Origin: Gammaproteobacteria bacterium | GTDB lineage: Bacteria > Pseudomonadota > Gammaproteobacteria > GCF-002020875 | Assembly: GCA_018648825.1 (NCBI GenBank) | Contig: JABGQL010000073.1 | Span: 2,118-53,164, forward strand | Direction: 5' to 3' | DNA length: 51,047 nucleotides | Shown: positions 9,525-33,271 of the stretch, one piece after another | Layout: every line of letters begins with the position of its first letter | Position numbering within the stretch: the stretch's first letter is position 1 | The notes under the pieces: model-generated | Databases searched by the model: none | What the model saw: only the letters and a program-made list of their open reading frames with translations | What the model was told of the DNA's origin: nothing | Made by a program: the position numbers and the translations under genes

Positions 9525-9542
9525 TCAGTTATTTCTCTCTGC

Positions 9543-9558
9543 TGGCATAGAAAATGCT
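9543..9558 (+). promoter_or_regulatory. Sigma-54 promoter of the cytochrome bd-like operon
   Basis: TGGCATAGAAAATGCT (GG-N10-GC), 40 bp upstream of the first ORF. Confidence 0.8.
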
Positions 9559-9597
9559 CTGCCTGTAAAACCAAGAAAATCAATTGAGGTGCGGATT

Positions 9598-9801: not shown

Positions 9802-9845
9802 GTGGTTCTATTTACAGTCTCGATATTGCATGAGCAGGAGTTGGA

Positions 9846-9971
9846 ATGAAGACGGGAATGATATTTGTGGGTGCACTGCTGGTTGCCTTTTTGATGTTCT
9901 ACACCATGGATCATCTGGTGATGGGAATGCAGGGGCTGCCCCTTAATCTTGATTTGACGCCAGCACAGTAG
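9846..9971 (+). CDS. Small single-pass membrane protein, 41 aa (below ORF-track cutoff); candidate accessory subunit
   Basis: AGGAG RBS at 9836-9840; MKTGMIFVGALLVAFLMFYTMDHLVMGMQGLPLNLDLTPAQ; stops 10 nt before the bd-like gene. Confidence 0.7.
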   Translation: MKTGMIFVGALLVAFLMFYTMDHLVMGMQGLPLNLDLTPAQ

Positions 9972-9981
9972 GGAGCGCGCA

Positions 9982-12629: not shown

Positions 12630-12663
12630 TCCACGGAATTATGGGATTGGGAGTAGTGTTGCG

Positions 12664-15105
12664 ATGAGACGATTGGGCATAGCGCCGTTTTGGCAGGCTG
12701 TTCTGGTAGTGGTTGCGGCCTACCTGTTTTTTACCAACGCCTTTCCCCCATTGATGCCGCTCTCACTGGTGATTCAATTTATGTTGATCACCGTGGTTGG
12801 GGTGCTGCTCTACTACTCTTTTGATGATGAGCGCTGGGCTGAATTTCTCTCACCGATACAAAATGTACTGCGTGGCGGTGGTTTCCGCTTGACCTTGACC
12901 CGCTGGTTTTTCCTGCTGGCTATCCCCGCTTTGGTTGGGCAGACCACCTTCAACTTAGTGAAGCCGTCACTCGACTCTCCGGTTGAGTTGCGTCAAGTCC
13001 ACCCAGCGCCCCCCTCCAGTGTGAAGCTTTGGGGCAAGAGTTTTGATCTCAATAGCCTAGAGAGCCCTGTTCGAAACGAGGTGCTGAAGCAGTGGAAGGC
13101 GGGTGAGAAAGAGTCTGCAATGGCGCTCTATAGTGAGGCGGTCGACAGTGGGCGTGATGTCTACTATGGCAACTGTTTCTTCTGCCATGGAGATCTGCTG
13201 GATGGCAAAGGGCACTACGCCGAGGGGTTTAATCCGCAGCCGATCAACTTCCAAGACCCCACCGTAATCCCGCAGCAGCAAGAGGCATTTCTCTTCTGGC
13301 GTGCAGCTACGGGCGGCCCCGGTCTGCCCAAAGAGGGTACGCCGTGGAACTCTGCAATGCCGGTTTGGCATGAGATGTTGGATGAGGATGAGATCTGGAA
13401 TGTATTGATGTTTATCTTTGACTACAACGGTCAGGTCCCCAGAATCTGGAATCTACAGGATTCTGAAGCAGCAACAGCGATGCGTGATCTGATTCAGCGT
13501 GAGCGTAAAGGGGTAAAAGGGGATGCGCTCTATCAGCACCGTTGCGCCGTCTGTCATGGTGAAGAGGGGGCGGGGGATGGTGTCGCCGCTGAGCTGATGT
13601 ACCCCAAACCCCGTGACTTCACACTGGCCCTGTTCAAGTACAAGAGCTCTCCCGGTATGGTATTGCCGCGTGATGAGGATCTATTCCGTACCATTGAGCA
13701 GGGGTTGGATGGTACCGGTATGCCGGGTTGGGGGACTTTGCTGAGTGATGAGCAGATCAGCAGCCTGATTCCGGTGATTAAATCCTTCGATGTGGCAGCA
13801 TCTTGGCCGCCAGAAGAGGCTGAGGAGGAGGACTATGACGAGGATAGCGGACGTTATCTGAAGCAGGACTTCCAAGTGATCACCGAGCGTGAGCCGGAGC
13901 AGGGGCAGCAGCCCTATACACCGGAATCTATTGCCCAAGGTAAGGTCGCCTTTGATAAGTCCTGTACCGAATGTCATGGTGATACTGGGCGAGGCAACAT
14001 CCTCTCGGGCAAGCAGTTGGCGGATGACTGGGGTAACCGTATCTGGCCGCGTGATCTGACCAAGCCCTGGACCTGGCGTGCCACCAATGTCACTACAGGA
14101 GAGACCCCTGAAGTGAGTCGTCAGCAGACGGTACGTAATATCTATACCCGCCTCTCTATCGGTATTCCCGGCACCCCAATGCCGGCTCACCGTGCGACAG
14201 AGGAGGGGAACAAAGATCCGGTCCCACTGGAAGATCGTTGGCATATTGCCAACTACGTCTACAGTCTGCGTGAGACCACCCCCCCAATCGGTGACAGCAA
14301 TATGATTCGAGCCACTAAGCTGGCTGGGGTGTTGCCCGATTCGGTGGAAGATGAGCAGTGGGGTAATGCGGAGGCTACCTCCTTGATGTTGGTCCCTAAC
14401 ATCATCAAGGAGGAGCGTCTCTTTACTCCGCTCAATGATGCCATCACAGTGCGTGCACTCTACAACAGCAAAGAGATTGCACTACTGCTGGAGATTGATG
14501 ACCGTACCGACAGCCGTCCGGGGGAGGAGGTCTCAGTAGGCATTCAGGATGAGAATCTGGAGCTCTTCTCTGATGCGGTTGCGGTACAGTTCCCCAAAGA
14601 GAAAGCCTACGAGAGTAAGCCGGTGGTGGTGAAACCGCTTTACCGTCATGGAGATAAAGCTCACCACACCACCATGTGGTACTGGAATGCAGGGAGTGTA
14701 GAGCCTGCACGGCCGGGTCAGGCAATGCTCTTGGATGCCTCAGGCCCCGATAAGAAGATTGAGCCACGTAGGGGCGATGATTCACTGCAGGCCAAGGGGA
14801 TATGGAAAAATGGTCGCTGGCAGATCCTGATGAAGCGCCCCCGTAATGGTGGGGGCAGGGATGGAAAAACGGGTGACCTCAACTTTATTGAGGGGCAGTT
14901 CCTGCCTATTTCATTCGCCAACTGGGATGGTAGCAATGGTGAAAAGGGGGCGAAGCATACATTGACCAGCTGGGGCTGGTTGGTACTACCACCAGAGGTT
15001 GATGAGCAGCGCCTTTATGCTGTCCCGGGTGGTGTCGCGCTGTTTGTCTTCCTTATGGGCTTGTTGCTGGTGAGAAAGCAGCGCATGTATCGAAAACAGT
15101 ATTAG
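12664..15105 (+). CDS. Membrane-bound triheme cytochrome c fused to an EbdC/NxrC-like (DOMON-type) heme-b domain
   Basis: N-terminal TMs; CFFCH, CAVCH, CTECH; C-terminal VRALYN..FSDAVAVQFP..WKNGRW..ISFANWDGSNGEKGAK; final TM anchor. Confidence 0.85.
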   Translation: MRRLGIAPFWQAVLVVVAAYLFFTNAFPPLMPLSLVIQFMLITVVGVLLYYSFDDERWAEFLSPIQNVLRGGGFRLTLTRWFFLLAIPALVGQTTFNLVKPSLDSPVELRQVHPAPPSSVKLWGKSFDLNSLESPVRNEVLKQWKAGEKESAMALYSEAVDSGRDVYYGNCFFCHGDLLDGKGHYAEGFNPQPINFQDPTVIPQQQEAFLFWRAATGGPGLPKEGTPWNSAMPVWHEMLDEDEIWNVLMFIFDYNGQVPRIWNLQDSEAATAMRDLIQRERKGVKGDALYQHRCAVCHGEEGAGDGVAAELMYPKPRDFTLALFKYKSSPGMVLPRDEDLFRTIEQGLDGTGMPGWGTLLSDEQISSLIPVIKSFDVAASWPPEEAEEEDYDEDSGRYLKQDFQVITEREPEQGQQPYTPESIAQGKVAFDKSCTECHGDTGRGNILSGKQLADDWGNRIWPRDLTKPWTWRATNVTTGETPEVSRQQTVRNIYTRLSIGIPGTPMPAHRATEEGNKDPVPLEDRWHIANYVYSLRETTPPIGDSNMIRATKLAGVLPDSVEDEQWGNAEATSLMLVPNIIKEERLFTPLNDAITVRALYNSKEIALLLEIDDRTDSRPGEEVSVGIQDENLELFSDAVAVQFPKEKAYESKPVVVKPLYRHGDKAHHTTMWYWNAGSVEPARPGQAMLLDASGPDKKIEPRRGDDSLQAKGIWKNGRWQILMKRPRNGGGRDGKTGDLNFIEGQFLPISFANWDGSNGEKGAKHTLTSWGWLVLPPEVDEQRLYAVPGGVALFVFLMGLLLVRKQRMYRKQY

Positions 15106-15231
15106 AAACCACAATTTCTTTGAGTTTTTGCCGTTTATCTCTGCTGAGAGGGCATGGCCTGCTGAATAAAAGATATTGATACTCTATGGGTACGGTTCAC
15201 GTATGATAGATAAAATACTTTTACAGTAGAT

Positions 15232-15720
15232 ATGGTTATGGATAGCAAAAAATACGTTCTTATTGCCGATGATGACAATACGGTTTTAAATCTTTATGAG
15301 TCTATTCTAGGCACGCTTACCGACGAACACCCCAATGATTTGGTATCCGATGAGTTGGATGACCTCAGTGCATTGATTGGTGTTTCGGTTGAAGAGAGTA
15401 AACCCGATGTCTATGAGGGAGACCTTGACTTCTATCTCGCGAATGATGGCCTTAGTGCAGTGGATATGCAGGACCAGTGTATAGAGGCGGGAATTGTTGT
15501 GACCCATGCGTTGCTAGATATCCGCATGCCTCCAGGCATCGACGGGATCAAGACGGCGAAACTGCTTCTGGAAAAAAACCCCAGCCTTGATATTACCTTT
15601 ATCAGTGCCTATTCGGAGTACTCCGAAGAGATGATTGCAGAAGAGCTGGGTAGGCCGTGCCGAGTTTTGAAAAAGCCCTTTAGCAAAGAGGAAATTATTG
15701 AAATTTTGTCTGAGTCGTAA
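15232..15720 (+). CDS. Single-domain response regulator with acidic insertion
   Basis: VLIADDD, LLDIRMPPGIDG, FISAY, LKKPF; no output domain. Confidence 0.85.
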   Translation: MVMDSKKYVLIADDDNTVLNLYESILGTLTDEHPNDLVSDELDDLSALIGVSVEESKPDVYEGDLDFYLANDGLSAVDMQDQCIEAGIVVTHALLDIRMPPGIDGIKTAKLLLEKNPSLDITFISAYSEYSEEMIAEELGRPCRVLKKPFSKEEIIEILSES

Positions 15721-15788
15721 TGTTATCCCAGCACTCTTAAACAAGTTTTTGGGGTGGTGGAAGGTGTCAGGTAAGAGAGAAACTTAAA

Positions 15789-16055
15789 ATGGAACGTCTG
15801 AATTATATTGTAGAGTGGTTAGACCGAGAGTGGTTTCGTTTTCTCGTCTGGTTTCTGGTGGGGCTGTTTGTGATTCCTATGGGGATTACCTTACTGACTG
15901 GGGCGGTCAAGCTGGATCGATTCTATGATGGGTTAATGCCGGGGCAGCTCAATATTGGGGTGTTACTGTTAGCGATGGCCCCCTATCTGCTCTATTTGGG
16001 GTACCGCATTGTGCGTCATATGCGTGGTGGAGAAGGGGAAATTGAGGTTTTTTAG
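15789..16055 (+). CDS. Small two-TM hypothetical membrane protein
   Basis: 88 aa with two hydrophobic helices; purine-rich leader. Confidence 0.6.
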   Translation: MERLNYIVEWLDREWFRFLVWFLVGLFVIPMGITLLTGAVKLDRFYDGLMPGQLNIGVLLLAMAPYLLYLGYRIVRHMRGGEGEIEVF

Positions 16056-16279
16056 GGTATATTCAATTCGCACAGCTTGGTCAGATGTTCCCTAAGAGGC
16101 TGTAGATAGAACCAAAGAGAGTGAAGTCAGTTTTGGTTTTCTAGAGCTTTCCTATATGGCTGAAAGTGGAGCTTGTTGCTATTTAATAGTGATCATAAAA
16201 TTAACAATTGCTAATATAGTTATTGGGTGGTACTGTTCGCGGCTTTTCCGCCCTCTACACAGCTTAAGGCTTATAGCAC

Positions 16280-18259
16280 ATGCCCTCTTCGATTGCCTCC
16301 CACAAAAAGCCATTACTATCAAAAAAACAACTACTTGCGGCTGGCCTATTTGCCCTTCTGGCACTCTATCTAGCACTTATTGTCCCCACCATTGAGGTTG
16401 CATGGGTTAGCACTATTCTGGTGCTGACCATCTACCTGTTTGCGTTTGAAGTGGTCTCTGTGGATGTGGCTGCGATTACGGTGATGGTGCTGTTGGGGCT
16501 CACCACGCTGCTCGCTCCAATGATGGGGCTGGAGGCTGGGCTGGTTGATAACCGTCAGTTATTCAATGGCTTCTCCTCCAATGCGGTGATCTCCATTATT
16601 GCCGTGATGATCATTGGCGCGGGACTAGACCGTACCGGTATGATGAGTCGAGTGGCGACACTGATTCTCAACGTGGGAGGCACCACAGAGAAACGTATCA
16701 TCCCCATCATCTCCTCTACCGTTGGTTTTATCTCCTCCTTTATGCAGAACGTGGGCGCAGCTGCGCTGTTTTTGCCCGTGGTATCCCGTATCTCTGCCCG
16801 TTCAGGATTGCCGATGTCGCGGCTGTTGATGCCGATGGGCTTTACCGCGATTTTAGGCGGGACCATGACCATGGTCGGGTCCAGCCCCTTGATTCTGTTG
16901 AATGATCTGATTCTGGCCTCCAATCAGGCGCTTCCAGAGACACAGCAGATGGAGACTTGGGGGCTGTTCTCCGTTACTCCGGTGGGTGTTGCGCTGGTAT
17001 TGACCGGAATCGCCTACTTCATGGTTGCGGGTCGTTTTGTATTGCCAACCCATAGTGGAGAGGATGCCACGGTGAAGGGCGTTGATTCAATGCACTACTT
17101 TCATGAGGTCTATGGCGTTGACTATGGTATTCATGAGCTGGTGGTGGTTGATCAGAGCACCTTGGTTGGTAAACAGTTTGATGAAGTAGAGAATCGCTAT
17201 AGTGTGCGTATTATTGCAACCAAGTTGCCTGGAGAGGCACCTCGTGTAGGGCCGGGTGCATTGGCGCGTGATGTCGATATTCAGGCCGGTATGGTGCTGG
17301 GAGTGGTGGCAGAGCCTGCTCATCTGGAGCAATTTGTCTCCACCTTCCAGCTCAAGCAGCGCGATATGATGCGCACCTTCACCGAAGACCTCTCTCCGAA
17401 TAAATCGGGTATTGCAGAGGTGGTGATTCCTCCTCGTTCTGCGTTGATTGGTAAGAGTGCACGTGATCTCTGGATGCGTAAAATCTATGGTTTGGCGATG
17501 GTGGGGCTGCACCGTAATGGTGAAACTTTGCGAGAAGGGGATGATGTACGTAACCAGCCACTGATGGCAGGGGATACGTTGATGGTTCACACCTCATGGC
17601 GAGATCTTGAGCGTATCGAGAAGGATCGTGACTTTGTGGTGGTGACTACGGAGTTTCCACGTGAAGAGGAGATGCGTCCCCATAAAATTCTGCCAGCGGC
17701 CATTTTCTTCGGCATTGCACTGTTTATGGTGCTGTTTACCGATATTCGCCTCTCGGTAGCGTTGTTAACTGGAGCCATGGGGATGGTGCTGAGTGGGGTC
17801 TTGAGTATTGATGAGGCCTATGAGGCCGTGAGCTGGAAAACGGTCTTTCTGCTCGCCTCATTGATTCCTCTGGGGCTGGCGGTGGAGACCAGTGGTACCG
17901 CACGCTGGATTGCAGAGCAGGTGCTGGAGGTGGTTGGTGCTCAGCCGCTTTGGGTGATTCAGACTGCGATTGCGATATTGGCTACCTTCTTTACACTGGT
18001 GATGTCGAATGTGGGGGCAACGGTACTGCTGGTCCCCTTGGCGGTCAATATCGCAATTGGTGCGGGGGGTGACCCTGCTGTTTTTGCACTGACAGTGGCG
18101 ATCGCAACCTCCAACTCCTTCCTGATTCCGACGCATCAGGTGAATGCGCTGATTATGGGGCCTGCAGGATATCGCGTGGCTGACTTTATCCGCGCAGGCG
18201 GGGTGATGACGGTGCTGTTTATTGTGGTGCAGATTACTGCAATGAGCCTCTTCTTTTGA
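16280..18259 (+). CDS. SLC13/CitMHS-type anion permease with two TrkA-C (RCK_C) domains
   Basis: FMQNVGAAALFLP, GGTMTMVGSSP, central soluble VV..S.L.GK repeats, VMSNVGA, SNSFLIPTHQVNALIMGPAGY. Confidence 0.9.
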   Translation: MPSSIASHKKPLLSKKQLLAAGLFALLALYLALIVPTIEVAWVSTILVLTIYLFAFEVVSVDVAAITVMVLLGLTTLLAPMMGLEAGLVDNRQLFNGFSSNAVISIIAVMIIGAGLDRTGMMSRVATLILNVGGTTEKRIIPIISSTVGFISSFMQNVGAAALFLPVVSRISARSGLPMSRLLMPMGFTAILGGTMTMVGSSPLILLNDLILASNQALPETQQMETWGLFSVTPVGVALVLTGIAYFMVAGRFVLPTHSGEDATVKGVDSMHYFHEVYGVDYGIHELVVVDQSTLVGKQFDEVENRYSVRIIATKLPGEAPRVGPGALARDVDIQAGMVLGVVAEPAHLEQFVSTFQLKQRDMMRTFTEDLSPNKSGIAEVVIPPRSALIGKSARDLWMRKIYGLAMVGLHRNGETLREGDDVRNQPLMAGDTLMVHTSWRDLERIEKDRDFVVVTTEFPREEEMRPHKILPAAIFFGIALFMVLFTDIRLSVALLTGAMGMVLSGVLSIDEAYEAVSWKTVFLLASLIPLGLAVETSGTARWIAEQVLEVVGAQPLWVIQTAIAILATFFTLVMSNVGATVLLVPLAVNIAIGAGGDPAVFALTVAIATSNSFLIPTHQVNALIMGPAGYRVADFIRAGGVMTVLFIVVQITAMSLFF

Positions 18260-18285
18260 TCTTTGGCTGGCGGGGGAGAGTGGTG

Positions 18286-18353
18286 AGAACGAATTGTTCA
18301 ATCGTTCTCAAGTAATCCTAAGGGGGTATAGGAGAAAGTGAACAAAATGTTCA
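18286..18353. promoter_or_regulatory. Pair of putative enhancer palindromes upstream of the idr operon
   Basis: AGAACGAATTGTTCA (18286-18300) and TGAACAAAATGTTCA (18339-18353), centres 53 bp apart; same pattern as 9419-9488. Confidence 0.6.
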
Positions 18354-18439
18354 TTGCTCATCAATGCTGAACTCTGTTTATAGGTTTTATTTGTTTGTAA
18401 TTAATTGTTGTTAAAGTAAAAAAAGTTTCTCTTCTGCTC

Positions 18440-18455
18440 TGGCATAGAAGCTGCA
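18440..18455 (+). promoter_or_regulatory. Sigma-54 promoter of the idr operon
   Basis: TGGCATAGAAGCTGCA (GG-N10-GC); CTGGCATAGAA is identical to the promoter at 9543; AT-rich tract upstream. Confidence 0.78.
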
Positions 18456-18547
18456 GTCAATACCTGCGGTTTTTTCTATCAGATGACATTCATGCCATCT
18501 GGTAGGCCAATTGAATGATTTGTCCAACCATACAATGGAGAAACAAT

Positions 18548-19687
18548 ATGGGAGAACGACGAACAATAGTTCGAGGAGCAGTTGCAACTGCAGTTGCACT
18601 GGGCTTGAGTGTCGGTGTGTCTACATCGGTAACTGCGGGGTCACACGGCCCGGTAGCGAAGATTGATGTGAATGCTGCGAAAGCAGAGCTTGGAAAACGA
18701 CTTTTCTTTGATCGCCGCCTGTCAGGTGATGCTGGTATTTCCTGTTCAGACTGTCACAGTCCAGATCATGGCTACGGCAGTAAGGAGGCCCTCTCTCCGG
18801 GATATCCAGGTAATGGACATTTCCGTAATGCGCCATCGCTGTTGAACACCGCGCACAAGAAGACTTGGATGCATGATGGTCGTCTCGGAACCAATTTGAA
18901 TGATGTGACTCGTGAGATGCTCACTGAGGACTACATCATGAATATGGATATGCGGATGATGCAGGAGCGCGTTAAGCAGGACTCTGAGTATCTGGCGCTC
19001 TATAAGGCTGCAGGGATGAATGAGCCTTCCAATGGCAATATTCGCAAGTTGTTGCCAGAGTATATGAAGACCCTAACCACCCGCAATGCGCCAGTAGACA
19101 GTGGCACCATGAGTGCTGCAGCACAGCGTGGCGAAGCGATTTTTGATGGTAAAGGCAACTGTAATAGCTGCCATACCGGAGCGCTCTACTCTGATGGCAA
19201 GCGCCACAACACGGGTGTTCCTGAGAATCTGGATGTGTTCATGGACCCTATGAACCATCAGGCCTATCTCGCCTATGGTATCGGTATGGGGGTAGAGAAT
19301 ATCTTCAACACCAAACGTGATATCGGTGCAGCGGTTCAGAGCCATGAAGCTGATGGTTCAGATATCGGCACCTTTATGACTCCACAGCTACGTGGCCTCA
19401 AGTATAGCGCCCCTTACATGCATAACGGCATGATGGCGACACTGGCTGATGTGGTTGATTTCTACAATCAGGGCGGTGGGGCAGATAGCCACAAGAGTGC
19501 AATGCTGAAGCCACTGCGTTTGACCGATGGTGAGAAGGGCGATCTGGTTGCATACCTAGAGGCACTTTCTGGTGATGCACTAACCGGTTCTGAGTTTGTC
19601 TGGAGTAAGCCATACCCTGCTGAGTATGAGGTGATTCCAAACTGGACTCAGGTGGATAACCGCACCCGTGCGCCAATCAAGAAATAA
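18548..19687 (+). CDS. idrP2: Diheme cytochrome c peroxidase-family protein, iodate reductase-associated
   Basis: GGAG RBS before ATG 18548; signal peptide; LGKRLFFD, CSDCH, CNSCH, TPQLR..APYMHNG. P1/P2 numbering assigned from gene order only. Confidence 0.8.
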   Translation: MGERRTIVRGAVATAVALGLSVGVSTSVTAGSHGPVAKIDVNAAKAELGKRLFFDRRLSGDAGISCSDCHSPDHGYGSKEALSPGYPGNGHFRNAPSLLNTAHKKTWMHDGRLGTNLNDVTREMLTEDYIMNMDMRMMQERVKQDSEYLALYKAAGMNEPSNGNIRKLLPEYMKTLTTRNAPVDSGTMSAAAQRGEAIFDGKGNCNSCHTGALYSDGKRHNTGVPENLDVFMDPMNHQAYLAYGIGMGVENIFNTKRDIGAAVQSHEADGSDIGTFMTPQLRGLKYSAPYMHNGMMATLADVVDFYNQGGGADSHKSAMLKPLRLTDGEKGDLVAYLEALSGDALTGSEFVWSKPYPAEYEVIPNWTQVDNRTRAPIKK

Positions 19688-19705
19688 GCGATCAGGAGAT
19701 TGAAT

Positions 19706-20965
19706 ATGTTTGAAAAGAGAAAGACAAACCCAATCGCCGTTGCGGTCGCATTGGGCGCCACATTGATGGCAGGTTGCACCTCAGCAACCACATCCGTCTC
19801 TACCACTCCGGCCGCTACTGCGGCACCGGTGCAGGTGGCGATGAATGGAACCCCGACGATGGCTTCAGGAGTTGTTGCTGCGGGTGGTGAAAATAATCCG
19901 CCTCTGGCAGCGTTGGGTCCTGTGCCGGTACCTCCAGATAACCCCCAGAGTGCAGCCAAGGTTGAGTTGGGCAAGATGTTGTTCTTCGAGCCAGCGGTCG
20001 GTGGTGATACCTCCACGCCTTGTTCTGCCTGTCATGACCCAGATCAGGGTTGGGGCTGGGCAGAGGATATCTCTCGTGGATATCCAGGCACCGTTCACTG
20101 GCGTAACAGCCAGACTGTGGTGAACTCTGCCTACTATCCTCGTCTGTTCTGGGCCTCCTCGGTCTCTTCACTAGAGGCGCAGGCCAAGTCTGCTGCAGGT
20201 GGTGCGGTTGCAGGTAATGCCGAGTTTGATATCGTTGAGGCGCGTCTGGCACTGATGCCAGAGTATCGTCAGCGTTTCAACGAAGTATTTGGTGATGAGT
20301 TCCCGCTCTACCGCAACGCCTTCCGTGCGATTGCGGCCTTTGAGCGTGCCGAGCTGGTACAGCGTGATGCACCGATTGATAACTACTTCAATGGTGACAA
20401 GAGCGCGTTGAGCGAAGAGCAGCTGCGCGGTATGGCGCTGTTTAACGGCAAGGCCAACTGTATTGAGTGTCACAACGGCCCAATGGCAACCGACTTCAGC
20501 TACTACAACATTGGTGTACCTACGCTGGAACGCTGGAAGGAGGATGGTCTGGCACAGATCACCTATCGCTATGAGATGTATGCGAAGGGTTCAAACGAAG
20601 AGATGTACAAGAACTACAAGGATGATCCAGGTTTCTACTTCCGTGACAAAAACAGCTGGAACAAGGGTAAATTCCGTACGCCGTCTCTGCGTTACACCGC
20701 ATATTCTGCGCCCTATATGCATAACGGCACCCTCAATTCGCTGGAAGAGGTCATTGACTTCTACAATGCGGGTGGTGGACACAATATGTTCTCCAAGAAC
20801 AAGTCCAAGCTGATTAAACCGCTGGGTCTGAATGATGCCGAGAAGGAAGATCTGTTGGCATTCCTCGAGGCCTTCTCGGGTGAAGAGATCGCAATTGATC
20901 GTCCTAAGATGCCTGACTATGCACCTCTGTTTACCAAGGCAGAGCTGATGATGGAGAAGAAATAA
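19706..20965 (+). CDS. idrP1: Diheme cytochrome c peroxidase-family lipoprotein, iodate reductase-associated
   Basis: AGGAG RBS; lipobox LMAGC; LGKMLFFE, CSACH, CIECH, FRTPSLR..APYMHNG; adjacent to the Rieske gene. Confidence 0.8.
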   Translation: MFEKRKTNPIAVAVALGATLMAGCTSATTSVSTTPAATAAPVQVAMNGTPTMASGVVAAGGENNPPLAALGPVPVPPDNPQSAAKVELGKMLFFEPAVGGDTSTPCSACHDPDQGWGWAEDISRGYPGTVHWRNSQTVVNSAYYPRLFWASSVSSLEAQAKSAAGGAVAGNAEFDIVEARLALMPEYRQRFNEVFGDEFPLYRNAFRAIAAFERAELVQRDAPIDNYFNGDKSALSEEQLRGMALFNGKANCIECHNGPMATDFSYYNIGVPTLERWKEDGLAQITYRYEMYAKGSNEEMYKNYKDDPGFYFRDKNSWNKGKFRTPSLRYTAYSAPYMHNGTLNSLEEVIDFYNAGGGHNMFSKNKSKLIKPLGLNDAEKEDLLAFLEAFSGEEIAIDRPKMPDYAPLFTKAELMMEKK

Positions 20966-21576
20966 TGAGTGAATCAGTAACTATCGGTAAAAAGAGCCGA
21001 GAGGACCAGACCGCAGGAGAGCACGGCAAGTGCATGCTCAACCGTCGTCAGTTCTTGATGTACAGTGGTGCAACGGCAGCAACGGCCAGCACCGTATCTC
21101 TTACTCTGTTCCCAGGTACTGCCAAGGCAGCACAGGCCAAGGCACGTGTGGTTGGTTATCCACGTAAGCTGGTGGGCAAGTTGAGTGAGATGAAGGATAA
21201 CGTCCCTGCGGTCATCAACTACCCAGATGATGGCAAGAACTCCATGGCGACCATGGTCAAGACTGGTGTCAAGTGTGGCGGCGGTGTCGGAGCGCAGCGT
21301 GATCTGGTTGCCTTCAGTGCGCTTTGTACACATCAGGGCGGCCCGCTATTGGGTCGTTACAGAGTGGTGGATGAGCACCGGATCATGGGCTCTTGCCCAC
21401 TCCACCTCTCCACCTACGACGTAACCCGTCATGGAATCATCATCTCTGGTCAGGCTTATGAGAGTCTGCCGCAGGTCCTGTTGGAGCTGGATGGAGACGA
21501 TATCTATGCAGTAGGGATGATGGGATTGATCTACGGCCGTAACCAGAACCTCATGTCTGATACGACGGAATCTTAA
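20965..21576 (+). CDS. idrB: Tat-exported Rieske [2Fe-2S] small subunit (AioB-like)
   Basis: Tat motif NRRQFL; CTH ... CPLH ligands; C-terminal LPQVLLE..IYAVGMMGLIYGR typical of AioB/IdrB. Confidence 0.88.
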   Translation: MSESVTIGKKSREDQTAGEHGKCMLNRRQFLMYSGATAATASTVSLTLFPGTAKAAQAKARVVGYPRKLVGKLSEMKDNVPAVINYPDDGKNSMATMVKTGVKCGGGVGAQRDLVAFSALCTHQGGPLLGRYRVVDEHRIMGSCPLHLSTYDVTRHGIIISGQAYESLPQVLLELDGDDIYAVGMMGLIYGRNQNLMSDTTES

Positions 21577-21589
21577 GGAGAATTAAAGA

Positions 21590-24283
21590 ATGGCTACTAA
21601 TTATTATCTTCCAGAAGACTCCGCACCATTGCCACCCAAGCATGCGGATGTCCTGACTACAGCCTGCGACTACTGTATTGTCGCCTGTGGCTACAAGGTC
21701 TATCGCTGGCCTGTCGGTTCCGGTGACGGGGGGCCAATGGCATCTGAAAATGCCTTTAACCAGGACTTCCCAGCCAGCGCACTGCAAAACTGGGTTGCTC
21801 CGGCACAGCACAATGTGGTGATCCATAACGGTCGTCCACACAATGTGATCGTGGTTCCGGATAAAGATACGGAAGCAGTAAACAAGAATGGTGACTCCTC
21901 CATGCGTGGTGGTCTGTTGGCAGCCAAGTGCTACAACCCCAAGACTCCAACGCGTGATCGTCTCACCAACCCACTGGTGCGTATCAACGGTACACTACAG
22001 CCAGTGAGCTGGGACTTCGCACTGGATATCGCTGCGGAGGTGGGTCGCTATGTGATCAAGAATCACGGCGCCAACGCCTACTCCGTGAAGACCTTCTCCT
22101 ACCAGTATCTGGAGAACACCTACGCGATCAAGAAGTATGCACGTCGTAATGTAAATACTGCATCCTTCACCTTCCACGACACCCCATCGGATGTAACCTC
22201 GACTCCAGGCTTCCGTGATGCTGGGTTTGATAACTTCGGTCCATCGTATGATGACTGGGGTGATGCCGATGTACTGCAGATTCATGGTACGGACCCTTAC
22301 GAGACCAAGACCATCATCTATACGCAGTTCATCAAGCCTGCGATTGAACGTGGCATGAAGACCATCTGGTTGAATCCTCGTGAGACGGCCGGTATCGCCT
22401 ATGCCAATAGTAAGGGGCCGGATCAGACCATCCACTTCCAGCTGACACTCGGCACCGATACGGTACTGATGGGGGCAATTGCCCGTGTTATCTGTGAGAA
22501 CGGCTGGGAAGACTCCGACTGGGTTAAGAACTGGGTCAACAGCAAGTGGGAGACCTCTTCAGGCTTCGGTCAGGGTACCCGTAATACCCCTTGGCAGTGG
22601 CGTACCACTTGGGGCATGTTCCAGGTTAAGGGCGGCTTCAAGGGCTACAGCAAATGGGTACAGTCCAAGGATGAGTATAAGGTAGAGAACGCCGCGAAGA
22701 TCTGTGATGTTCCTGCTGCAGATATCATCAAGGCGGCGGAATGGCTTACCAATAAGGGTAAGGGCACCAAGGCCTCCTTCGGTATTGAGAAGGGGTACTA
22801 CTGGTCGAACAACACCGGTAACACCAATGCGGTCTCTTCACTGGCAACCATCTGTGGTGCTGGCGGACGTCCGGGTCAAGTTGTGGGTCGCTTCGGTGGT
22901 CACCAACGTGGTGGTGCAGGTGGCGGTAGCTATCCGCGCAACAAGTCTCCAGAAAAGCGTCCAGGTCGTCGTCGTCGTTCACTCGATACCGATCGTTACC
23001 TGATCTCTGGTCATACCCGTTTTGCTCACGTAATCGGTACCACCTGGATTCAGGCGATGACCGGTTCACAGAGCTTGTACAGTAAATTCCATGAGCTGGT
23101 GCTGGCCAATCCAAATCAGGTCAACTCCTACGATAAGCAGGAGATCATCGAGACCCTGAAGCGTCGTGCAGATTCAGGCGGTATGGTGGTGATCAATCAG
23201 GATATCTATCTGCGTGATCCGATCGGTGCCCGTTTTGCCGATGTGATCTTCCCAGCAGCAACCTGGGGTGAGACTGACTTTACCCGTTCCAACGGTGAGC
23301 GTCGTCTGCGTATCTACAACCAGTTCTACGATGCACCAGGACAGGCGAAACCAGATTGGTGGATCATCGCTGGAATGGCGAGCCGAATGGGTTATGAAGG
23401 CTTTGACTGGAAAAATGCCAATGAGGTTGCAGAGGAGTCATCACGCTCCAGCCGTGGTAACCGTAAGGCGTACCATATGGTCAAGGTTGCGGCACACCGT
23501 GAGGGTAAAACCTTCCATGAGAAGATGCGTGAATTCGGTACCACCGGTATCCAGGGGCCAACGGTCTATAACTACAAGACCGGTGAGCTGACAGGAACCA
23601 AGCGTCTGCACGACACCACCATTACCGAGGAGATGTGTGAGAAGCGTGGTGTCTACCAGGGTGCCAATATGACCAACAAGAAGATGACACACTTCAACTC
23701 GCAGACGGGTAAGGTCAATATCCAGAAGCATCCATGGAAACTGTTCTCAGACTTCCACGAGTGGTTGTCACCTAAGGGTGATGAGCTCTGGTTCTCCAAT
23801 GGTCGAATCAATGAGATTTGGCAGTCGGGCTTCGATGATGTTGAGCGTCGTCCATATGTCACCCAACGCTGGCCTGAGAACTGGGTCGAGATTCACCCTG
23901 ATGATGCCAAGGCTCGCGGTATTGAGTCTGGTGATCAGGTGATGCTCTACTCTGATCGTGTGGTCGAGTCGAAGGATACCATTCTGGGTGTACATGGGGA
24001 TGACTTCCAGTTCTCCACATTGATGAAGAATGGCCACCTCAAGTTCACCAAAGCTGCGGTAACGGCAGTTGCAGTGATTGCACCTCACCTGAAGAAGGGG
24101 ATGATGTACGGCAATATGCTGGATATGCGTCAGCCCAATAACTCGTTGCAGAACCGCGTGGTCGATCAGATCAGTGGTAACTACAACTACAAGATGGGTG
24201 TGGCTAAAGTGAAGAAGATCGGCGAATCGCAGTACAAGAAGGAGTTCCGCTCCATGTCTTGGGCGCCTCGTAATGTGATCTAG
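21590..24283 (+). CDS. idrA: Molybdopterin catalytic subunit, AioA-like clade; putative iodate reductase
   Basis: [3Fe-4S] motif CDYCIVACGY plus SSMRGG; EKG, GRFGGHQ, NGERRLR, NGRINEIWQS. FHDTPSDVTST replaces AioA HNRPAYNSE; preceded by Rieske and two peroxidase genes. Confidence 0.85.
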   Translation: MATNYYLPEDSAPLPPKHADVLTTACDYCIVACGYKVYRWPVGSGDGGPMASENAFNQDFPASALQNWVAPAQHNVVIHNGRPHNVIVVPDKDTEAVNKNGDSSMRGGLLAAKCYNPKTPTRDRLTNPLVRINGTLQPVSWDFALDIAAEVGRYVIKNHGANAYSVKTFSYQYLENTYAIKKYARRNVNTASFTFHDTPSDVTSTPGFRDAGFDNFGPSYDDWGDADVLQIHGTDPYETKTIIYTQFIKPAIERGMKTIWLNPRETAGIAYANSKGPDQTIHFQLTLGTDTVLMGAIARVICENGWEDSDWVKNWVNSKWETSSGFGQGTRNTPWQWRTTWGMFQVKGGFKGYSKWVQSKDEYKVENAAKICDVPAADIIKAAEWLTNKGKGTKASFGIEKGYYWSNNTGNTNAVSSLATICGAGGRPGQVVGRFGGHQRGGAGGGSYPRNKSPEKRPGRRRRSLDTDRYLISGHTRFAHVIGTTWIQAMTGSQSLYSKFHELVLANPNQVNSYDKQEIIETLKRRADSGGMVVINQDIYLRDPIGARFADVIFPAATWGETDFTRSNGERRLRIYNQFYDAPGQAKPDWWIIAGMASRMGYEGFDWKNANEVAEESSRSSRGNRKAYHMVKVAAHREGKTFHEKMREFGTTGIQGPTVYNYKTGELTGTKRLHDTTITEEMCEKRGVYQGANMTNKKMTHFNSQTGKVNIQKHPWKLFSDFHEWLSPKGDELWFSNGRINEIWQSGFDDVERRPYVTQRWPENWVEIHPDDAKARGIESGDQVMLYSDRVVESKDTILGVHGDDFQFSTLMKNGHLKFTKAAVTAVAVIAPHLKKGMMYGNMLDMRQPNNSLQNRVVDQISGNYNYKMGVAKVKKIGESQYKKEFRSMSWAPRNVI

Positions 24284-24307
24284 CCTAGGATTGTTGTAAT
24301 CCTGATG

Positions 24308-24339
24308 CCCCTGACGGAGTTCTCTGTCAGGGGTTTTTT
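24308..24339 (+). terminator. Intrinsic terminator of the idr operon
   Basis: CCCCTGACGGAG-tt-CTCTGTCAGGGG followed by T6. Confidence 0.88.
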
Positions 24340-24376
24340 ACGTAAAGATGTAACAGTTATGCAATATTCTGTAATG

Positions 24377-24390
24377 TTGATTACAATCAA
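24377..24390. promoter_or_regulatory. FNR/Anr/Dnr box
   Basis: TTGATTACAATCAA is a perfect TTGAT-N4-ATCAA, 38 bp before the chemoreceptor ATG. Confidence 0.8.
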
Positions 24391-24428
24391 ACAATCCTTA
24401 ACTTTCTATCTATAGAATTAGTGACACT

Positions 24429-27392
24429 ATGAATATTCTCTCAGCGCTACGCCTCAAGACCAAGCTTATACTCATGATTGCCACGCCGTTGCTGGCGATG
24501 CTCTATTTTTCTACGGATCTGTTAATAGATAAGCGTCATCAACAGCAAGAGATGGTGCAGCTGAGCAGCCTTTCACAGCTGGCCTCTACCCTGAGTGCTC
24601 TGATCCACGAGACTCAGAAAGAGCGTGCTGCAAGTGCCGGATTTACCGGAAGTAAAGGGAAGAAGTTCGTCGATATTTTGCCTAAACAGCGTAAGTTGAC
24701 GGATCAACGGAGGGAGACCTTAAAGGCAGGGTTGGTAGGCTTTGATGCAACTCAGTATGGCGCTGGGTTTGAGAAAAAACTGGCGGCACTGTTGGCTGAT
24801 CTGAAACAGTTGGATCAGATGCGTGCGCAAATCAGTCGCTTGGAGCTTCCACTGCCCAAGGTGGTGGGGTGGTATACAGCAATGAATGCCAAGTTGTTGC
24901 AAGTGGTAGAGCAGATGCCGCATGTGGTGACGGATGCTGCACTGGTAGCGCGGATTACCGCCTATGTGAACTATCTTCAGAGTAAAGAGCGTGCAGGTAT
25001 TGAGCGTGCGGTGTTGAGTGCAACCTTTGGGGCCGACCAATTTGCACCGGGGATGTATAAGAAATTTATTGAGTTGGTAACGGCACAGAAAGATTTTCTA
25101 CATGTGTTTAACGCCATGGGTTCCGAGTCTGATAGACAGTTCTATCGTGAAACCATGCAGCATGAGTCGGTGGCTCAAGTAGAGCAGATGCGTGAAACAG
25201 CATTCAGTAAATTCGCCAGTGGCGGGTTTGGTATCGATGCAGAACACTGGTTTAAAACTATCACCCAGAAGATCAATCAGCTGAAGAGGGTGGATGACCA
25301 CTTGGCTGCTGGCATCCTGCAGCAGGCTGACAGACTGCAGTCGACGGCAACCACACTATTCCGTTTTTATATGGGGCTGATTCTGGTTTTGGTACTGTTT
25401 ACGCTCTGGATGGCGCTGCGAATTGGTGGGTCGATCCGTCACTCTGTAACCCATATGCGAGATGTGATTCGCACAGTAGTGGAGGAGGGGGACTTCTCGG
25501 TACGTGCCGATATTGATGCCCAAGATGCGGTGGGTGAGATGGCACGTACACTGGACTCTCTGTTGGAGAGCCTGCAAGACTCCATTCGTGAGACCAACCA
25601 AGTCGTCAATGATATTGCACATGGCACCTTCAATAGCCGTGTTGAGGCCGATTTCAAAGGGGAGTTATTGTTGTTAAAACAGGGGGTTAATCAGTCAGCA
25701 GAGAGTGTAGAACGCACCATGCTGGGGTTGACCGAGGTGATGAAGGCAATTACAGGGGGGGATTTCCGCTTCCGCCTGGATGGTATTGAGATGGAGGGTG
25801 AGTTCCGTCAAGTGTTGGAGCAGGCGATGGAGTCGATGGACGCCATTGTGACGGATATCAACCATGTAATGGATGCAGTTGCCAAAGGTAAGTTTGATGT
25901 TCGGGTGACTACGGTTGCTCAAGGCGATCTGGATCTATTGAAAAATAACTTGAACCGCTCATTGAATACTTTAGGAGAGGGGCTGAAAGAAGCCATTCGG
26001 GTCTCTAACCAGATGGGTGAGGGTGACCTGACTCAGTCTGTTACAGGAGATTATCGCGGCTCTTTGGCGGTGCTTAAAGACTCCATTAATGCAACACAGG
26101 CTAACTTTACCCAAATTGTCAGTAAAGTACGCTCTGCCTCTGAGCGTGTGCGTAAAGGTTCAGAAGAGATTTCACGCGGTAGTATGGATCTCTCCTCCCG
26201 TACCTCAGAGCAGGCGGCCAGCCTAGAAGAGACCGGTGCCAGCATGGAGGAGATGGCCAGTACCGTGAATATGAATGCAGACAGCGCCTCTCAGGCGAGT
26301 CAGTTAGCGGCAGAGTCACTGTTGCGTGCCGAGGAGGGGAGTCGGGTGGTTGCCGAGACGGTCAGCGCGATGCTGGGGATCAACTCATCCAGTAGTGAGA
26401 TCTCTGAAATTATCTCCTTGATTGATGGTATCGCCTTCCAGACCAATCTGCTGGCACTGAATGCAGCGGTAGAGGCGGCACGTGCAGGTGATCATGGCCG
26501 TGGGTTTGCAGTGGTTGCTGGTGAGGTACGTACATTGGCACAGCGTTCGGCGGATGCGGCTAAAGATATTAAAGGACTGATTGAGGAGAGTGGCAGCCGA
26601 ATTCAACAAGGCAGTGACTTAGTAAGCAGCAGCGGTGTAGCGCTCGACTCAATTGAAGAGTCGGTGAAGAAGATGAACGACATCTCCAGCGAGATTGAGG
26701 CAGCGACCAAAGAGCAGACACAGGGGATTAACCAAGTGAATACTGCGGTAGCGCAGCTGGACACGGTGACCCAAGAGAATGCAGCACTGGTGGAAGAGAC
26801 CGCTGCAGCCAGTTCACAGTTGAGTCAACAGGCGGATGAATTGGCGAGCATGGTCTCTCTCTTTAAATTGAGTCAAGAGGCGCAACGGCCGACATCAAGC
26901 AACCCATACACGGATGTTTTGACAAGGGCGCGATCGGCACACATTGCATGGAAGGGAAAAATTCGTGGTTTCCTAGATGGTGTGATTGAGATGGAGATGA
27001 GTCAGGCAGTTTCTCACCATGACTGTATGTTAGGGCAGTGGTTGGATAAAGAGGGGCGCAAACAATTCGCCTCATTGCCAGAGATGAAGACACTGGATAC
27101 AGTGCATGAAAAGATGCACTCCTTGATTCAGGATATTGTGAAGATGAAGAAGGCAGGGGATGGTGCAGGGGCTGAGGCACGGTTTGATGAGATTGAGCCG
27201 CTCTCGAAAGAGGTGGTTGTGCTGTTGGACAGGATCGAATCTGCGGCGGGTATGGCTTCAGCATCTCCGGTGCAGAGCAAGTCCGCAGCCTTACAGTCAG
27301 CGCCTCGACAGAGTAGGCCGACAGCTCAGCGAACTGCAGCTACCCCCCCACCTGTTTCGCATGCTGGTGATTCCGACTGGGCATCATTCTAG
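24429..27392 (+). CDS. Methyl-accepting chemotaxis protein: periplasmic NIT domain, poly-HAMP, signalling domain, C-terminal CZB domain and pentapeptide
   Basis: [10 protein letters not shown] and KERAGIERA (NIT); [20 protein letters not shown]; [20 protein letters not shown] (CZB); terminal DWASF. Confidence 0.93.
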
Positions 27393-29997: not shown

Positions 29998-30924
29998 ATG
30001 GCCCTGACTGACTATATCCACACCTTTGGTAGCACGATGCAAGCTCGTTTTGGCGAGCGCGTACATAAGGTCTCGATTGATGCAGGATTTACCTGCCCCA
30101 ATATTGATGGCTCTAAAGGGCGGGGCGGGTGCACCTTCTGTAATAATGTCTCTTTCAGTCCGCATGGGCGTAACCAACGCCCAGTTGCAGAGCAGATTGA
30201 GTCAGGGCGGCAGGTGATCCGCAAGCGCACCGGTGCGCAGCGCTATATCGCCTATTTTCAAGCCTACACCAACACCTATGCGGACCCGAAGGTGCTCGAT
30301 AAGATGTATCGCGAGGCACTGGCAGAGCCCGATGTAGTGGGGTTGTCTGTCGGCACCCGTCCTGACTGTGTGCCCGATCCGGTGCTTGACCTGCTGGCGG
30401 CCTATCGTGAAGAGGGGTATGAGGTGTGGCTGGAGCTGGGGTTGCAGTCTGCCTTTGATGAGACGCTGGACCGGGTTAATCGTCTCCACTATTTTTCCGA
30501 ATACAGACAAGCTGTGCGGGCAACCCAGCTGCGGGGACTGCAGCTCTGTACCCACCTGATTGCGGGACTGCCGGGAGAGGGGGCAGAACACCATCGGGAG
30601 ACCATGGATCGAGTACTGGAGCTGGGGACCGATGGACTCAAATTTCACCCGCTGCATGTGGTCAAGGGGACCATGCTGGCCAATGAGTGGCGGCGTGGCG
30701 AGTTTGAGCCGATGACCCAAGAAGCTTATGTAAACAGTGTGGTAGACTGGATTGAACAGGCACCACGAGAGATGATCTACCACCGATTGACCGCAACCGC
30801 CTCCGAAAATATTCTGTTAACCCCGCAGTGGTGTAACAAAAAATGGAAGGTATTGAATGCTATTGAGGATGAGTTGGCGCGTCGTCAGGTGCGAAATGCA
30901 ATGCCACAGGTAAAAGTTGTATGA
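29998..30924 (+). CDS. yhcC: TIGR01212/YhcC-family radical SAM protein
   Basis: GFTCPNIDGSKGRGGCTFCN, AYFQAYTNTY, VGTRPDC, LKFHPLHVVKGT. Confidence 0.88.
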   Translation: MALTDYIHTFGSTMQARFGERVHKVSIDAGFTCPNIDGSKGRGGCTFCNNVSFSPHGRNQRPVAEQIESGRQVIRKRTGAQRYIAYFQAYTNTYADPKVLDKMYREALAEPDVVGLSVGTRPDCVPDPVLDLLAAYREEGYEVWLELGLQSAFDETLDRVNRLHYFSEYRQAVRATQLRGLQLCTHLIAGLPGEGAEHHRETMDRVLELGTDGLKFHPLHVVKGTMLANEWRRGEFEPMTQEAYVNSVVDWIEQAPREMIYHRLTATASENILLTPQWCNKKWKVLNAIEDELARRQVRNAMPQVKVV

Positions 30925-32174: not shown

Positions 32175-32190
32175 TCGCTGCCTTTGAGAG

Positions 32191-32204
32191 TTGACCTCTC
32201 TCAA
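32191..32204. promoter_or_regulatory. FNR-like box upstream of ubiUVT
   Basis: TTGACCTCTCTCAA, 8/10 to TTGAT-N4-ATCAA, 60 bp before ubiU; ubiUV are FNR-controlled in E. coli. Confidence 0.6.
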
Positions 32205-32264
32205 TTAAAATACCGCTACTTATTGATATAGTTACCGCTTCTTTCTAGTAAACGCAGGTGTGTG

Positions 32265-33263: not shown

Positions 33264-33271
33264 CGGAGTTG

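Follow-up and report, generated by a model that had tools for sequence, protein, structure and literature searches.

A probable iodate reductase operon in an accessory island of a sulfur-oxidising gammaproteobacterial genus

The DNA analysed here is a 51,047 nt stretch of contig JABGQL010000073.1 from a gammaproteobacterial genome assembly (GenBank assembly accession number GCA_018648825.1), referred to below as the window. Positions 18548–24283 are filled by four co-directional open reading frames (ORFs) on the forward strand, named here after the iodate reductase (idr) genes and found in the order idrP2-idrP1-idrB-idrA. The first, idrP2 (18548–19687), encodes a di-haem cytochrome c peroxidase of 379 amino acids from its listed start, with a match to CCP_MauG (E 3.1e-32) and CxxCH motifs at residues 66 and 205. 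The second, idrP1 (19706–20965), encodes another di-haem cytochrome c peroxidase (CCP_MauG, E 1.8e-37; two CxxCH motifs), and its start is most likely the ATG at 19706, which has AGGAG ahead of it, rather than the TTG at 19700 of the ORF list. The Rieske [2Fe-2S] small subunit is encoded by idrB (20965–21576; Rieske, E 1.9e-5), which includes the twin-arginine translocation (Tat) motif NRRQFL, and the molybdopterin large subunit by idrA (21590–24283), which contains the Rieske_3 (N-terminal 3Fe-4S), Molybdopterin and Molydop_binding domains. Each of the four starts is preceded at 5–8 nt by GGAG or AGGAG (GGAG 6 nt upstream in the case of idrP2), the stop codon of idrP1 and the start codon of idrB overlap in TAATG, and the operon is closed by an intrinsic terminator at 24307–24334 on the same strand, a 12 bp stem with seven G-C pairs followed by TTTTTT. 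The first-pass annotation, made from the sequence by itself, had described two peroxidases, a Tat-Rieske subunit and an AioA-like subunit with strong ribosome-binding sites and a terminator, and all of these were borne out.

The export signals of all four proteins were read from the sequence. IdrA has no signal peptide of its own and the Tat signal is found on IdrB only, while both peroxidases begin with a hydrophobic segment. This segment appears to be a Sec-type signal in IdrP2, and IdrP1 also has a lipobox (LMAGC), making it a probable lipoprotein. The distribution of signals, Tat on IdrB, none on IdrA and Sec-type on the peroxidases, is that expected of periplasmic Idr proteins.

The large subunit belongs to the same fold family as that of arsenite oxidase, AioBA (NT-26, PDB 4AAY; Alcaligenes faecalis, 1G8K), which likewise pairs a 3Fe-4S/molybdopterin large subunit with a Tat-exported Rieske protein. 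An alternative identification is an AioBA with chance peroxidase neighbours, which would oxidise arsenite and pass the electrons to cytochrome c. The NCBIfam arsenite-oxidase equivalogs are indeed matched slightly above their cut-offs, TIGR02693 (large subunit) barely by idrA at 380.2 bits (cut-off 359.05) and TIGR02694 (small subunit) by idrB at 111.2 bits (cut-off 95.65). The best solved structures for the window IdrA are arsenite oxidases (E 1e-78), and public records use that name. However, in tblastn comparisons the window IdrA was only 25–30 % identical to the AioA of NT-26, Thermus and Hydrogenophaga, and 46 % identical to the IdrA encoded on a plasmid of Azonexus hydrophilus NCP973. 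The other three proteins were 44 % (IdrP2, against the first peroxidase), 55 % (IdrP1, against the second) and 51 % (IdrB) identical to those of the collinear Azonexus cluster, and IdrB shared 37 % identity with NT-26 AioB.

Phylogenetic analysis of the large subunit, performed as a quick tree of 53 rows and a careful IQ-TREE analysis of 30 rows, gave results that agree. In the 30-row tree the window protein fell in a clade of its own genus (support 100/100) inside a marine clade of 12 rows (100/100) that was sister (95/94) to the IdrA of A. hydrophilus NCP973 and a Thiothrix plasmid homologue, and the AioA of NT-26, Hydrogenophaga and Thermus were separated from it by several 100/100 branches. 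Azonexus is the sole anchor from a characterised organism, the IdrA of Pseudomonas sp. SCT and Denitromonas lying outside both trees. Members of the marine clade include Sedimenticola thiotaurini, Thiodiazotropha, tubeworm symbionts, Thiomargarita, Vibrio and one Arabian Sea genome, and the window IdrA has its closest relatives in Sedimenticola, Thiomargarita, Beggiatoaceae and the symbionts of tubeworms and lucinids. Membership of the large subunit in the IdrA rather than the AioA clade is the criterion used by Reyes-Umana et al. Placement in the AioA clade, which the first-pass annotation had named as the test of its proposal, was seen in neither tree.

The substrate-site motifs point the same way. 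Six AioA rows (NT-26, Thermus, Hydrogenophaga and three representatives) have HNRPAYNSE and GGHQEG, whereas the window IdrA has HDTPSDVTST and GGHQRGG at these sites, in addition to CDYCIVAC, and Azonexus IdrA has HDKCSATNDA and GGHQCGG; the replacement of the AioA motif had been reported correctly in the first-pass annotation. Gene content also differs, in that the NT-26 aio locus combines aioX and aioR with a sensor kinase gene and lacks peroxidase genes, whereas the window has no aioXSR and, as a fixed feature, two peroxidase genes ahead of idrB. The order P2-P1-B-A was found in 66 of 75 related loci. Tree, synteny with genes for a Rieske protein and two di-haem peroxidases, and motif together support the assignment to idr and not aio, as originally proposed, and we consider an arsenite oxidase very improbable. 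Electron flow would then be opposite to that in AioBA. In addition, many representative proteins of 1100–2100 amino acids (P0143, P0171, P0175, P0180, P0193, P0204 and others) match only residues ~15–445 of IdrA at 33–37 % identity, and look like large fusions with an Aio/Idr-like N-terminal half.

The same four genes make up the idrABP1P2 clusters of Pseudomonas sp. SCT, Denitromonas sp. IR-12, Azoarcus sp. DN11 and Azonexus NCP973, and the gene order in the window equals that of Azonexus, on which alone of these references the sequence comparison rests. A Tat signal confined to the small subunit is a further trait shared with Azonexus. However, the Azonexus operon resides on a plasmid next to Tn7-like (TnsA-like) and IS21 genes, with a cytochrome c gene and moaA downstream of it, whereas that of the window is chromosomal, lacks mobility genes and is linked to a module encoding a cytochrome bd-like complex, described below. 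The plasmid loci of Azonexus (L099) and Thiothrix subterranea (L100), both with beta-type idr, contain a cytochrome c gene, moaA, a sensor kinase gene and a sigma-54 regulator gene; T. subterranea is a further sulfur oxidiser with idr.

Further likenesses are with the marine-type clusters of Fu_MAG_99 (Alphaproteobacteria) and Arabian10_MAG_27 (SAR324), whose IdrA convert iodate to iodide in Escherichia coli and carry the motif HDTPSDVSST (PMC13455634, Table S2). When compared by eye, HDTPSDVTST of the window differs from this motif by one conservative change, and long blocks such as CDYCIVACG.KVYRWP and SGFGQGTRNTPWQWRTTWG are shared. Both of these genomes, like that of the window host, carry sulfur-oxidation genes (PMC13455634). 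A third genome from the same set, Arabian9_MAG_52 (locus L046), has an IdrA 73 % identical to that of the window and a bd-like module upstream. The host lineage differs from that set, Thiotrichales being unnamed in its supplement.

The host genome is 2.65 Mb in 168 contigs and 88.5 % complete, with the window on a 53 kb contig, and public records of the same genus are titled 'uncultured Piscirickettsiaceae bacterium' or 'Thiotrichales bacterium'. The gene content includes the RuBisCO large subunit (415 bits), SoxB (838 bits), the cbb3 oxidase subunit CcoN (604 bits) and two DsrA (467 and 466 bits, cut-off 393), as well as AprA, AprB, Sat, an SQR-like gene, two NapA, a Sec-type NosZ, a PPi-dependent phosphofructokinase and a membrane pyrophosphatase. 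RuBisCO, the two DsrA, AprAB, Sat, SoxB and the SQR-like gene back the earlier suggestion of a probable chemolithotrophic gammaproteobacterium. NarG and rplB were not found in this 88.5 %-complete genome, and neither was a chlorite-dismutase family gene, a result that gives no verdict between the published pathway models. The two dsrA (contigs C74 and C81) and two napA (C37 and C13), in a genome with 0.45 % reported contamination, may be real duplications or the product of merged strains.

Codon use was examined along a self-consistent axis built from a 40-gene reference that excluded the contig of the window (C15), with 2224 ORFs ranked and 20 of the top genes annotated. The top of the axis was occupied by AprAB, Sat, DsrAB, RuBisCO, NapA, GlnA, DnaK, ribosomal protein S9 and similar genes, and the idr genes ranked 25th (idrA), 34th (idrP1), 127th (idrB) and 267th (idrP2). 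The CGT share of arginine codons was 0.69 in the four idr genes and 0.35 in the genome, and the corresponding values for GGT were 0.53 and 0.31, with weaker shifts for TAC (0.56 against 0.46) and AAC (0.55 against 0.50). The first-pass annotation had judged the codons by eye to be those of highly expressed genes, and the counts and the ranks agree with it, strongly for CGT and GGT. GC content of the idr genes (0.506–0.542) lies inside the range of the genome (0.520 ± 0.032).

The distribution of the operon was examined in 61 related genomes, drawn from the window genus, two other genera of its family and 44 other families. A copy of idrA 93–95 % identical to that of the window was found in nine of the 14 other genus genomes, so that 10 of 15 carry idr; it was found in neither of the two other genera (0/2) nor in any of the 44 other families (0/44), and the next-best homologues outside the genus were at most 78 % identical. 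The gene for a CydA-like protein upstream of idr and a radical-SAM gene were each confined to the same 10 of 61 genomes as idrA, and neither was found in the five genus genomes that lack idr (84–99 % complete). The downstream core gene is kept in four of these five at 82–92 % identity. In one of them a gene for a NIT-domain chemoreceptor, which in the window directly follows idrA, adjoins this core gene with no idr between, which puts the right-hand end of the island at some point from 24334 to 24429. Its left-hand end was not found and lies beyond the start of the window and contig. Because idr has been gained or lost together with the bd-like module and the radical-SAM gene, and because the core neighbours adjoin one another in the idr-less relative, the operon makes up the distal portion of an accessory island, 24 kb or more in length, that is long-resident and codon-adapted. 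The description of the operon as native thus holds at the level of the genus, where it is codon-adapted and present in 10 of 15 genomes, but not in the sense of core genome, as the island is accessory and was not found in the sister genera sampled.

A more radical possibility is that the operon is foreign to this host, whether because of faulty binning or assembly or because it was acquired very recently. The assembly is in 168 contigs, the IdrA tree conflicts with taxonomy (the nearest sequences outside the genus come from unclassified Gammaproteobacteria, Sedimenticolaceae or tubeworm symbionts), and transposase-flanked plasmid copies are known elsewhere. However, the operon lies on one 53 kb contig with core genes that are 63–92 % identical to those of idr-less relatives, the nine further copies in the genus are 93–95 % identical, and GC content and codon use match the genome. 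The 33 ORFs scanned in the window included no transposase or integrase domain, as had been noted from the first inspection of the flanks, and no tRNA was found in the window. A foreign origin of this kind is the least credible of the explanations considered, and we regard it as extremely improbable.

In the 290 bp ahead of idrP2, a sequence matching the sigma-54-type −24/−12 pattern exactly, TGGCATAGAAGCTGCA, is found at 18440–18455 on the forward strand, ~92 nt before the idrP2 start. Its TGG-A and TGCA elements are unchanged in 6/6 genus sequences, and a perfect palindrome lies ~100 bp upstream of it. This palindrome, TGAACAAAATGTTCA (18339–18353), is one of a pair, the other being the weaker AGAACGAATTGTTCA (18286–18300) located 53 bp away, and its core GTGAAC...GTTCA is unchanged in 6/6 genus sequences with diverged surroundings. 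We infer that TGGCATAGAAGCTGCA is used as a promoter, and the palindromes (18286–18353, forward strand) are likely sites for a sigma-54 activator. A promoter of this type with an upstream activator site would place the operon under the control of a signal-dependent enhancer-binding protein. Sigma-54-dependent control is known for the arsenite oxidase genes, aioBA.

A second, divergent region at 9297–9558 has a similar organisation and is a candidate control region. Sigma-54-like sites at 9297–9312 (reverse strand) and 9543–9558 (forward strand) point, respectively, into the reverse-strand radical-SAM and HEAT-repeat genes and into the bd-like module, and two palindromes of the form TGAAT-N5-GTTCA, TGAATGAATCGTTCA (9419–9433) and TGAATGATTCGTTCA (9474–9488), lie 55 bp apart. 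Paired sites were found at the equivalent place in three further loci (L019, L020 and L022). The consensus TGAAY-N5-GTTCA would be expected 0.09 times in the 51 kb window but occurs at three distinct sites, every one of them in these two promoter regions. Across the related loci, 8 of 70 had the strict sigma-54 pattern upstream of idrP2 (~0.4 expected from background) and 9 of 70 had the palindrome; for the CydA-like gene the upstream counts were 3 and 8 of 17, respectively. In Azonexus, Thiothrix and Vibrio-type loci, idr has a sensor kinase gene and a sigma-54 regulator gene beside it. Sigma-54 control of idr is therefore well supported, as a prediction from conserved sites, within the genus, and plausible for the family. 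A common regulon extending beyond the genus is partly supported, because the patterns are enriched outside it yet far from universal.

Other forms of control were also considered. FNR-type control of idr was rejected, as there is no good box at the idr promoter; the only perfect TTGAT-N4-ATCAA (TTGATTACAATCAA) is at 24377–24390, 39 nt before the start of the NIT chemoreceptor gene. That chemoreceptor was ruled out as an idr-specific sensor, because a relative without idr has a 63 %-identical copy at the same core position. A scan for sigma-70 promoters returned fewer sites than shuffled sequences and none ahead of idrP2.

The exact sequence of the operon was found in 14 metatranscriptome runs from 11 studies, and in four of these every sampled word was present. 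One RNA-library contig of 5920 nt spans 18369–24286 without a mismatch. This evidence consists of assembled contigs, from which strand, level, transcript ends and DNA carry-over cannot be read, and it is consistent with transcription of the operon without proving it. In four runs whose contigs were placed on the window there was little or no contig cover of the bd-like module (9982–15105), and contig depth was higher on idr than on its flanks; contig holes and depth cannot rank genes, and no conclusion on co-expression or level is drawn from them.

The bd-like module (9517–15105, forward strand) was delimited using Pfam and NCBIfam matches, transmembrane segments and CxxCH motifs, and consists of five genes. 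The first two are mini-ORFs conserved in 20–21 loci: one ends at 9801 (listed start 9517, true start probably later) and has a conserved C-terminal transmembrane segment, and the other (9846–9971) encodes 41 amino acids. They are followed by the gene for the CydA-like protein (9982–11799; 605 amino acids, ~12 hydrophobic segments), a membrane-anchored di-haem cytochrome c (11796–12629) and a protein with membrane anchors at its two ends in which a tri-haem cytochrome c is joined to an EB_dh haem-b domain (12664–15105). The module contains no CydB, and the operon partners of the CydA-like protein are the two cytochrome c proteins. Residues 69–234 of the CydA-like protein align to residues 10–172 of Geobacillus CydA (PDB 5DOQ; E 1e-8), covering helices 1–4 only, and its match to Pfam Cyt_bd_oxida_I covers profile positions 2–251 of 418. 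The haem-ligand histidine and the glutamate of the oxygen site are retained. The nearest Atlas clusters of this protein are commonest in Nitrospirota, which we note as a lead only. The central di-haem part of the tri-haem/EB_dh protein (residues 285–536) matches PDB 6h5l chain B, a 'conserved hypothetical cytochrome protein' (E 3.2e-32).

The module shares the first four helices and the cytochrome c partners with the CydB-less OR-N/OR-C bd-like proteins described by Murali, Gennis and Hemp 2021 (bioRxiv 10.1101/2021.01.16.426971). The window module is tied to an iodate reductase, whereas the OR-N/OR-C type is tied to nitrite or manganese oxidation. There, CydA-like proteins without a quinol site are presented as oxygen reductases with alternative donors, not as quinol dehydrogenases.

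Association of the module with idr was examined in two ways. The module precedes idr, in the same orientation, in every genus locus with enough flank (4/4). A further 45 loci offered 6.5 kb or more of upstream sequence; 19 of them had all three large module genes, 22 at least one and 23 none, the last including every Vibrio-type locus. In an even sample of 400 genomes from the class, 12 had both idrA and the CydA-like gene, five the CydA-like gene only, three idrA only and 380 neither; the two genes were on one contig in nine of the 12 double carriers, including genomes with an IdrA just 48–54 % identical to that of the window, and the pairs span at least 10 families. The space between module and idr appears to be an insertion hot spot. 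It measures 313–472 bp in L019, L020 and L022, 2.3 kb with a 622-amino-acid ORF in L023 (4631–6940 of that locus), and 3.4 kb in the window (15105–18548), where genes for a receiver-domain protein, an 88-amino-acid membrane ORF and a CitMHS/TrkA_C anion transporter are found on the forward strand at 15232–18259. This insert had no match in any of 88 related loci and lies outside the conserved unit. Eight loci (L028, L031, L040, L049, L071, L074, L079 and L082) have an extra same-strand ORF of ~200 amino acids in a 1.0–1.8 kb gap between the EB_dh gene and idrP2; its carriers are tubeworm symbionts, Motiliproteus, Thiodiazotropha and Sedimenticolaceae, and it is absent from the window genus.

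From these observations we think it probable that the window carries a functional idrP2-idrP1-idrB-idrA operon, driven from a sigma-54 promoter and located in an accessory island carried by most species of a marine, sulfur-oxidising, CO2-fixing genus, whose uncultured member studied here would use iodate as an electron acceptor. By analogy with the family, IdrB would ferry its partner IdrA into the periplasm via the Tat pathway, and electrons would pass from c-type cytochromes to the Rieske centre, the 3Fe-4S cluster and the molybdenum cofactor, where iodate would be reduced, in the reverse of the direction taken in arsenite oxidase. The two di-haem peroxidases would clear reactive by-products such as H2O2. 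The operon would be driven by the predicted sigma-54 promoter and its upstream activator site. Judging from the gene content of the host, iodate would serve as an acceptor alongside oxygen (cbb3), nitrate (Nap) and N2O (NosZ), and the electrons would be drawn from reduced sulfur via the quinone and cytochrome c pools. The bd-like/cytochrome c/EB_dh complex is most likely the membrane link of the operon, and would either feed Idr with electrons or reduce an oxidant released by iodate reduction.

Two alternatives concern what the operon does. The enzyme may be an Idr-type reductase with another true substrate, such as bromate, chlorate, a different oxyanion or a reactive halogen or oxygen species, with iodate reduction a side activity. 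Identity between the clade and beta-type IdrA is 46 % and their substrate-position motifs differ, the bd-like complex linked to the operon is of a family that Murali et al. interpret as oxidant-reducing, and seawater iodate is scarce, with a quoted concentration of 0.45 µM. However, marine clusters with a near-identical motif turned iodate into iodide stoichiometrically in E. coli (PMC13455634), Roseovarius azorensis induces idr at 0.1 µM iodate and reduces iodate, and the high codon adaptation of the window genes suggests a major and not an incidental function. A different true substrate is, in our judgement, distinctly unlikely.

The second alternative, which we rate slightly higher though still unlikely, is that iodate is reduced without energy conservation, the operon acting as an auxiliary electron sink or defence at low oxygen that does not allow growth on sulfur donors. 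Aerobic marine Alphaproteobacteria reduce iodate only under static, oxygen-limited conditions, with no growth benefit shown, and two isolates use nitrate ahead of iodate (PMC13455634); the host has a cbb3 oxidase, Nap and NosZ as well, and the unit includes two peroxidases. Set against this, knock-out of idrA in Denitromonas abolishes growth on iodate, the codon adaptation of the window operon is on a par with that of core energy genes, and the island has its own membrane complex. Use of iodate as a respiratory acceptor is the reading we prefer.

Several points weigh against this reading or parts of it. The closest alignable enzyme from a characterised isolate, that of Azonexus, has the substrate-position motif HDKCSATNDA in addition to its low identity, and the validated marine IdrA were set beside the window protein by eye, outside the computed tree. 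The E. coli tests of these marine clusters had ~28 % background reduction with the empty vector (PMC13455634). No enzyme assay of the window protein, or of another protein from the clade of gammaproteobacterial sulfur oxidisers, was found in the literature searched. Of 65 loci outside the genus, just four had the strict promoter pattern ahead of idrP2, and just four had the palindrome. Seven sigma-54 activator-like genes were found in the incomplete host genome (88.5 %, 168 contigs), none of them on the contig of the window. The counts of co-occurrence between idrA and the CydA-like gene overstate independence and significance, because relatives have shared ancestry. The only published reading of this family, as oxygen reductases (Murali et al.), does not favour an electron-supply role for the bd-like complex.

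A wider interpretation can be offered only tentatively, and we hold it to be less probable than not by some distance. In this interpretation idr would be no more than the last section of an independent respiratory island under sigma-54 control, in which the CydB-less bd-like complex, built with the help of the radical-SAM/PCP_red tetrapyrrole genes of the island, would be a dedicated membrane partner that either supplies IdrBA with electrons or reduces the oxygen, H2O2 or hypoiodous acid given off by iodate reduction. The abundant Gammaproteobacteria that oxidise sulfur, animal symbionts and giant sulfur bacteria included, might then be a major overlooked source of iodide in low-oxygen seas. 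If the dedicated-partner part were true, the bd-like 'oxidases' of nitrite and manganese oxidisers would gain a first testable function. Cultured carriers, for example Sedimenticola thiotaurini and Aestuariirhabdus, make testing practical.

Parts of this picture have been reported before. The idr system, its wide horizontal spread and its presence in the sulfur oxidiser S. thiotaurini were published in 2021 by Reyes-Umana et al., who count S. thiotaurini and Vibrio as idr carriers. A paper from 2026 (PMC13455634), in which Azonexus hydrophilus NCP973 is a representative iodate respirer, found dsr/apr/sat genes in 73.2 % of 41 idr-bearing genomes from oxygen-minimum zones and proposed that sulfide oxidation is coupled to iodate reduction, assigning idr mainly to SAR324 and Alphaproteobacteria. 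The idea in the first-pass annotation that idr is known only from heterotrophs is therefore outdated. Coupling of idr to sulfur oxidation is not new, and the window locus is a new member of a known system in a lineage unnamed in the supplement of the 2026 paper. We found no paper linking iodate or idrA to cytochrome bd or bd-like proteins in a search that did not cover subscription journals, so that absence is unproven, and none linking tubeworm or lucinid symbionts, Thiomargarita or Beggiatoaceae to iodate reductase (Sedimenticola excepted). As judged from this search, cytochrome bd is not named in the main text of the 2026 paper. Iodide accumulates in oxygen-minimum zones and its producers are still being worked out. 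The window extends the idr carriers to an entire genus of autotrophic, sulfur-oxidising Gammaproteobacteria with small genomes (idr in 10 of 15 species genomes), in which idr has the codon use of core energy genes and its exact sequence occurs in marine RNA libraries, and the bd-like module with its shared control sites provides a handle on an enzyme family of unknown function.

The remaining genes of the island are on the reverse strand to the left of the divergent control region. From the window edge, which cuts the first of them, they encode an amine-oxidase-like flavoprotein (1–1386), a radical-SAM/SPASM protein of the NirJ/AhbD-like type (1383–3407), a protein with two Usp domains (3417–5621), a CarboxypepD_reg-like protein (5873–6643) and a HEAT-repeat protein (6714–9227). 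The radical-SAM and Usp proteins (1383–5621) contain three and four copies of PCP_red, a small domain found at the C-terminus of protochlorophyllide reductase subunit B, and this unusual architecture travels with the island. The amine-oxidase gene was found in none of the five idr-less genus genomes, in a search that had no positive control. The reverse-strand genes may serve cofactor maturation.

To the right of the operon the window contains genes for two large chemoreceptors with NIT (nitrate/nitrite-sensing), HAMP, MCP and zinc-binding CZB domains, the first directly after idrA (24377–27392 with its FNR-like box) and the second at 38441–41749. A cluster at 42750–50317, 18 kb from idr, encodes a PhnD-like periplasmic binding protein, a 618-amino-acid ORF without a Pfam match, a dCache/HAMP histidine kinase and a hybrid kinase-receiver protein, with no sigma-54 regulator among them; its layout is reminiscent of AioX/AioS sensing. 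Between the two chemoreceptor genes, at 29998–34709, a core cluster comprising a radical-SAM gene, an FAD monooxygenase gene, two U32-peptidase genes and an SCP2 gene is kept in genus relatives with and without idr, and presumably resembles the oxygen-independent ubiquinone set UbiU/UbiV/UbiT.

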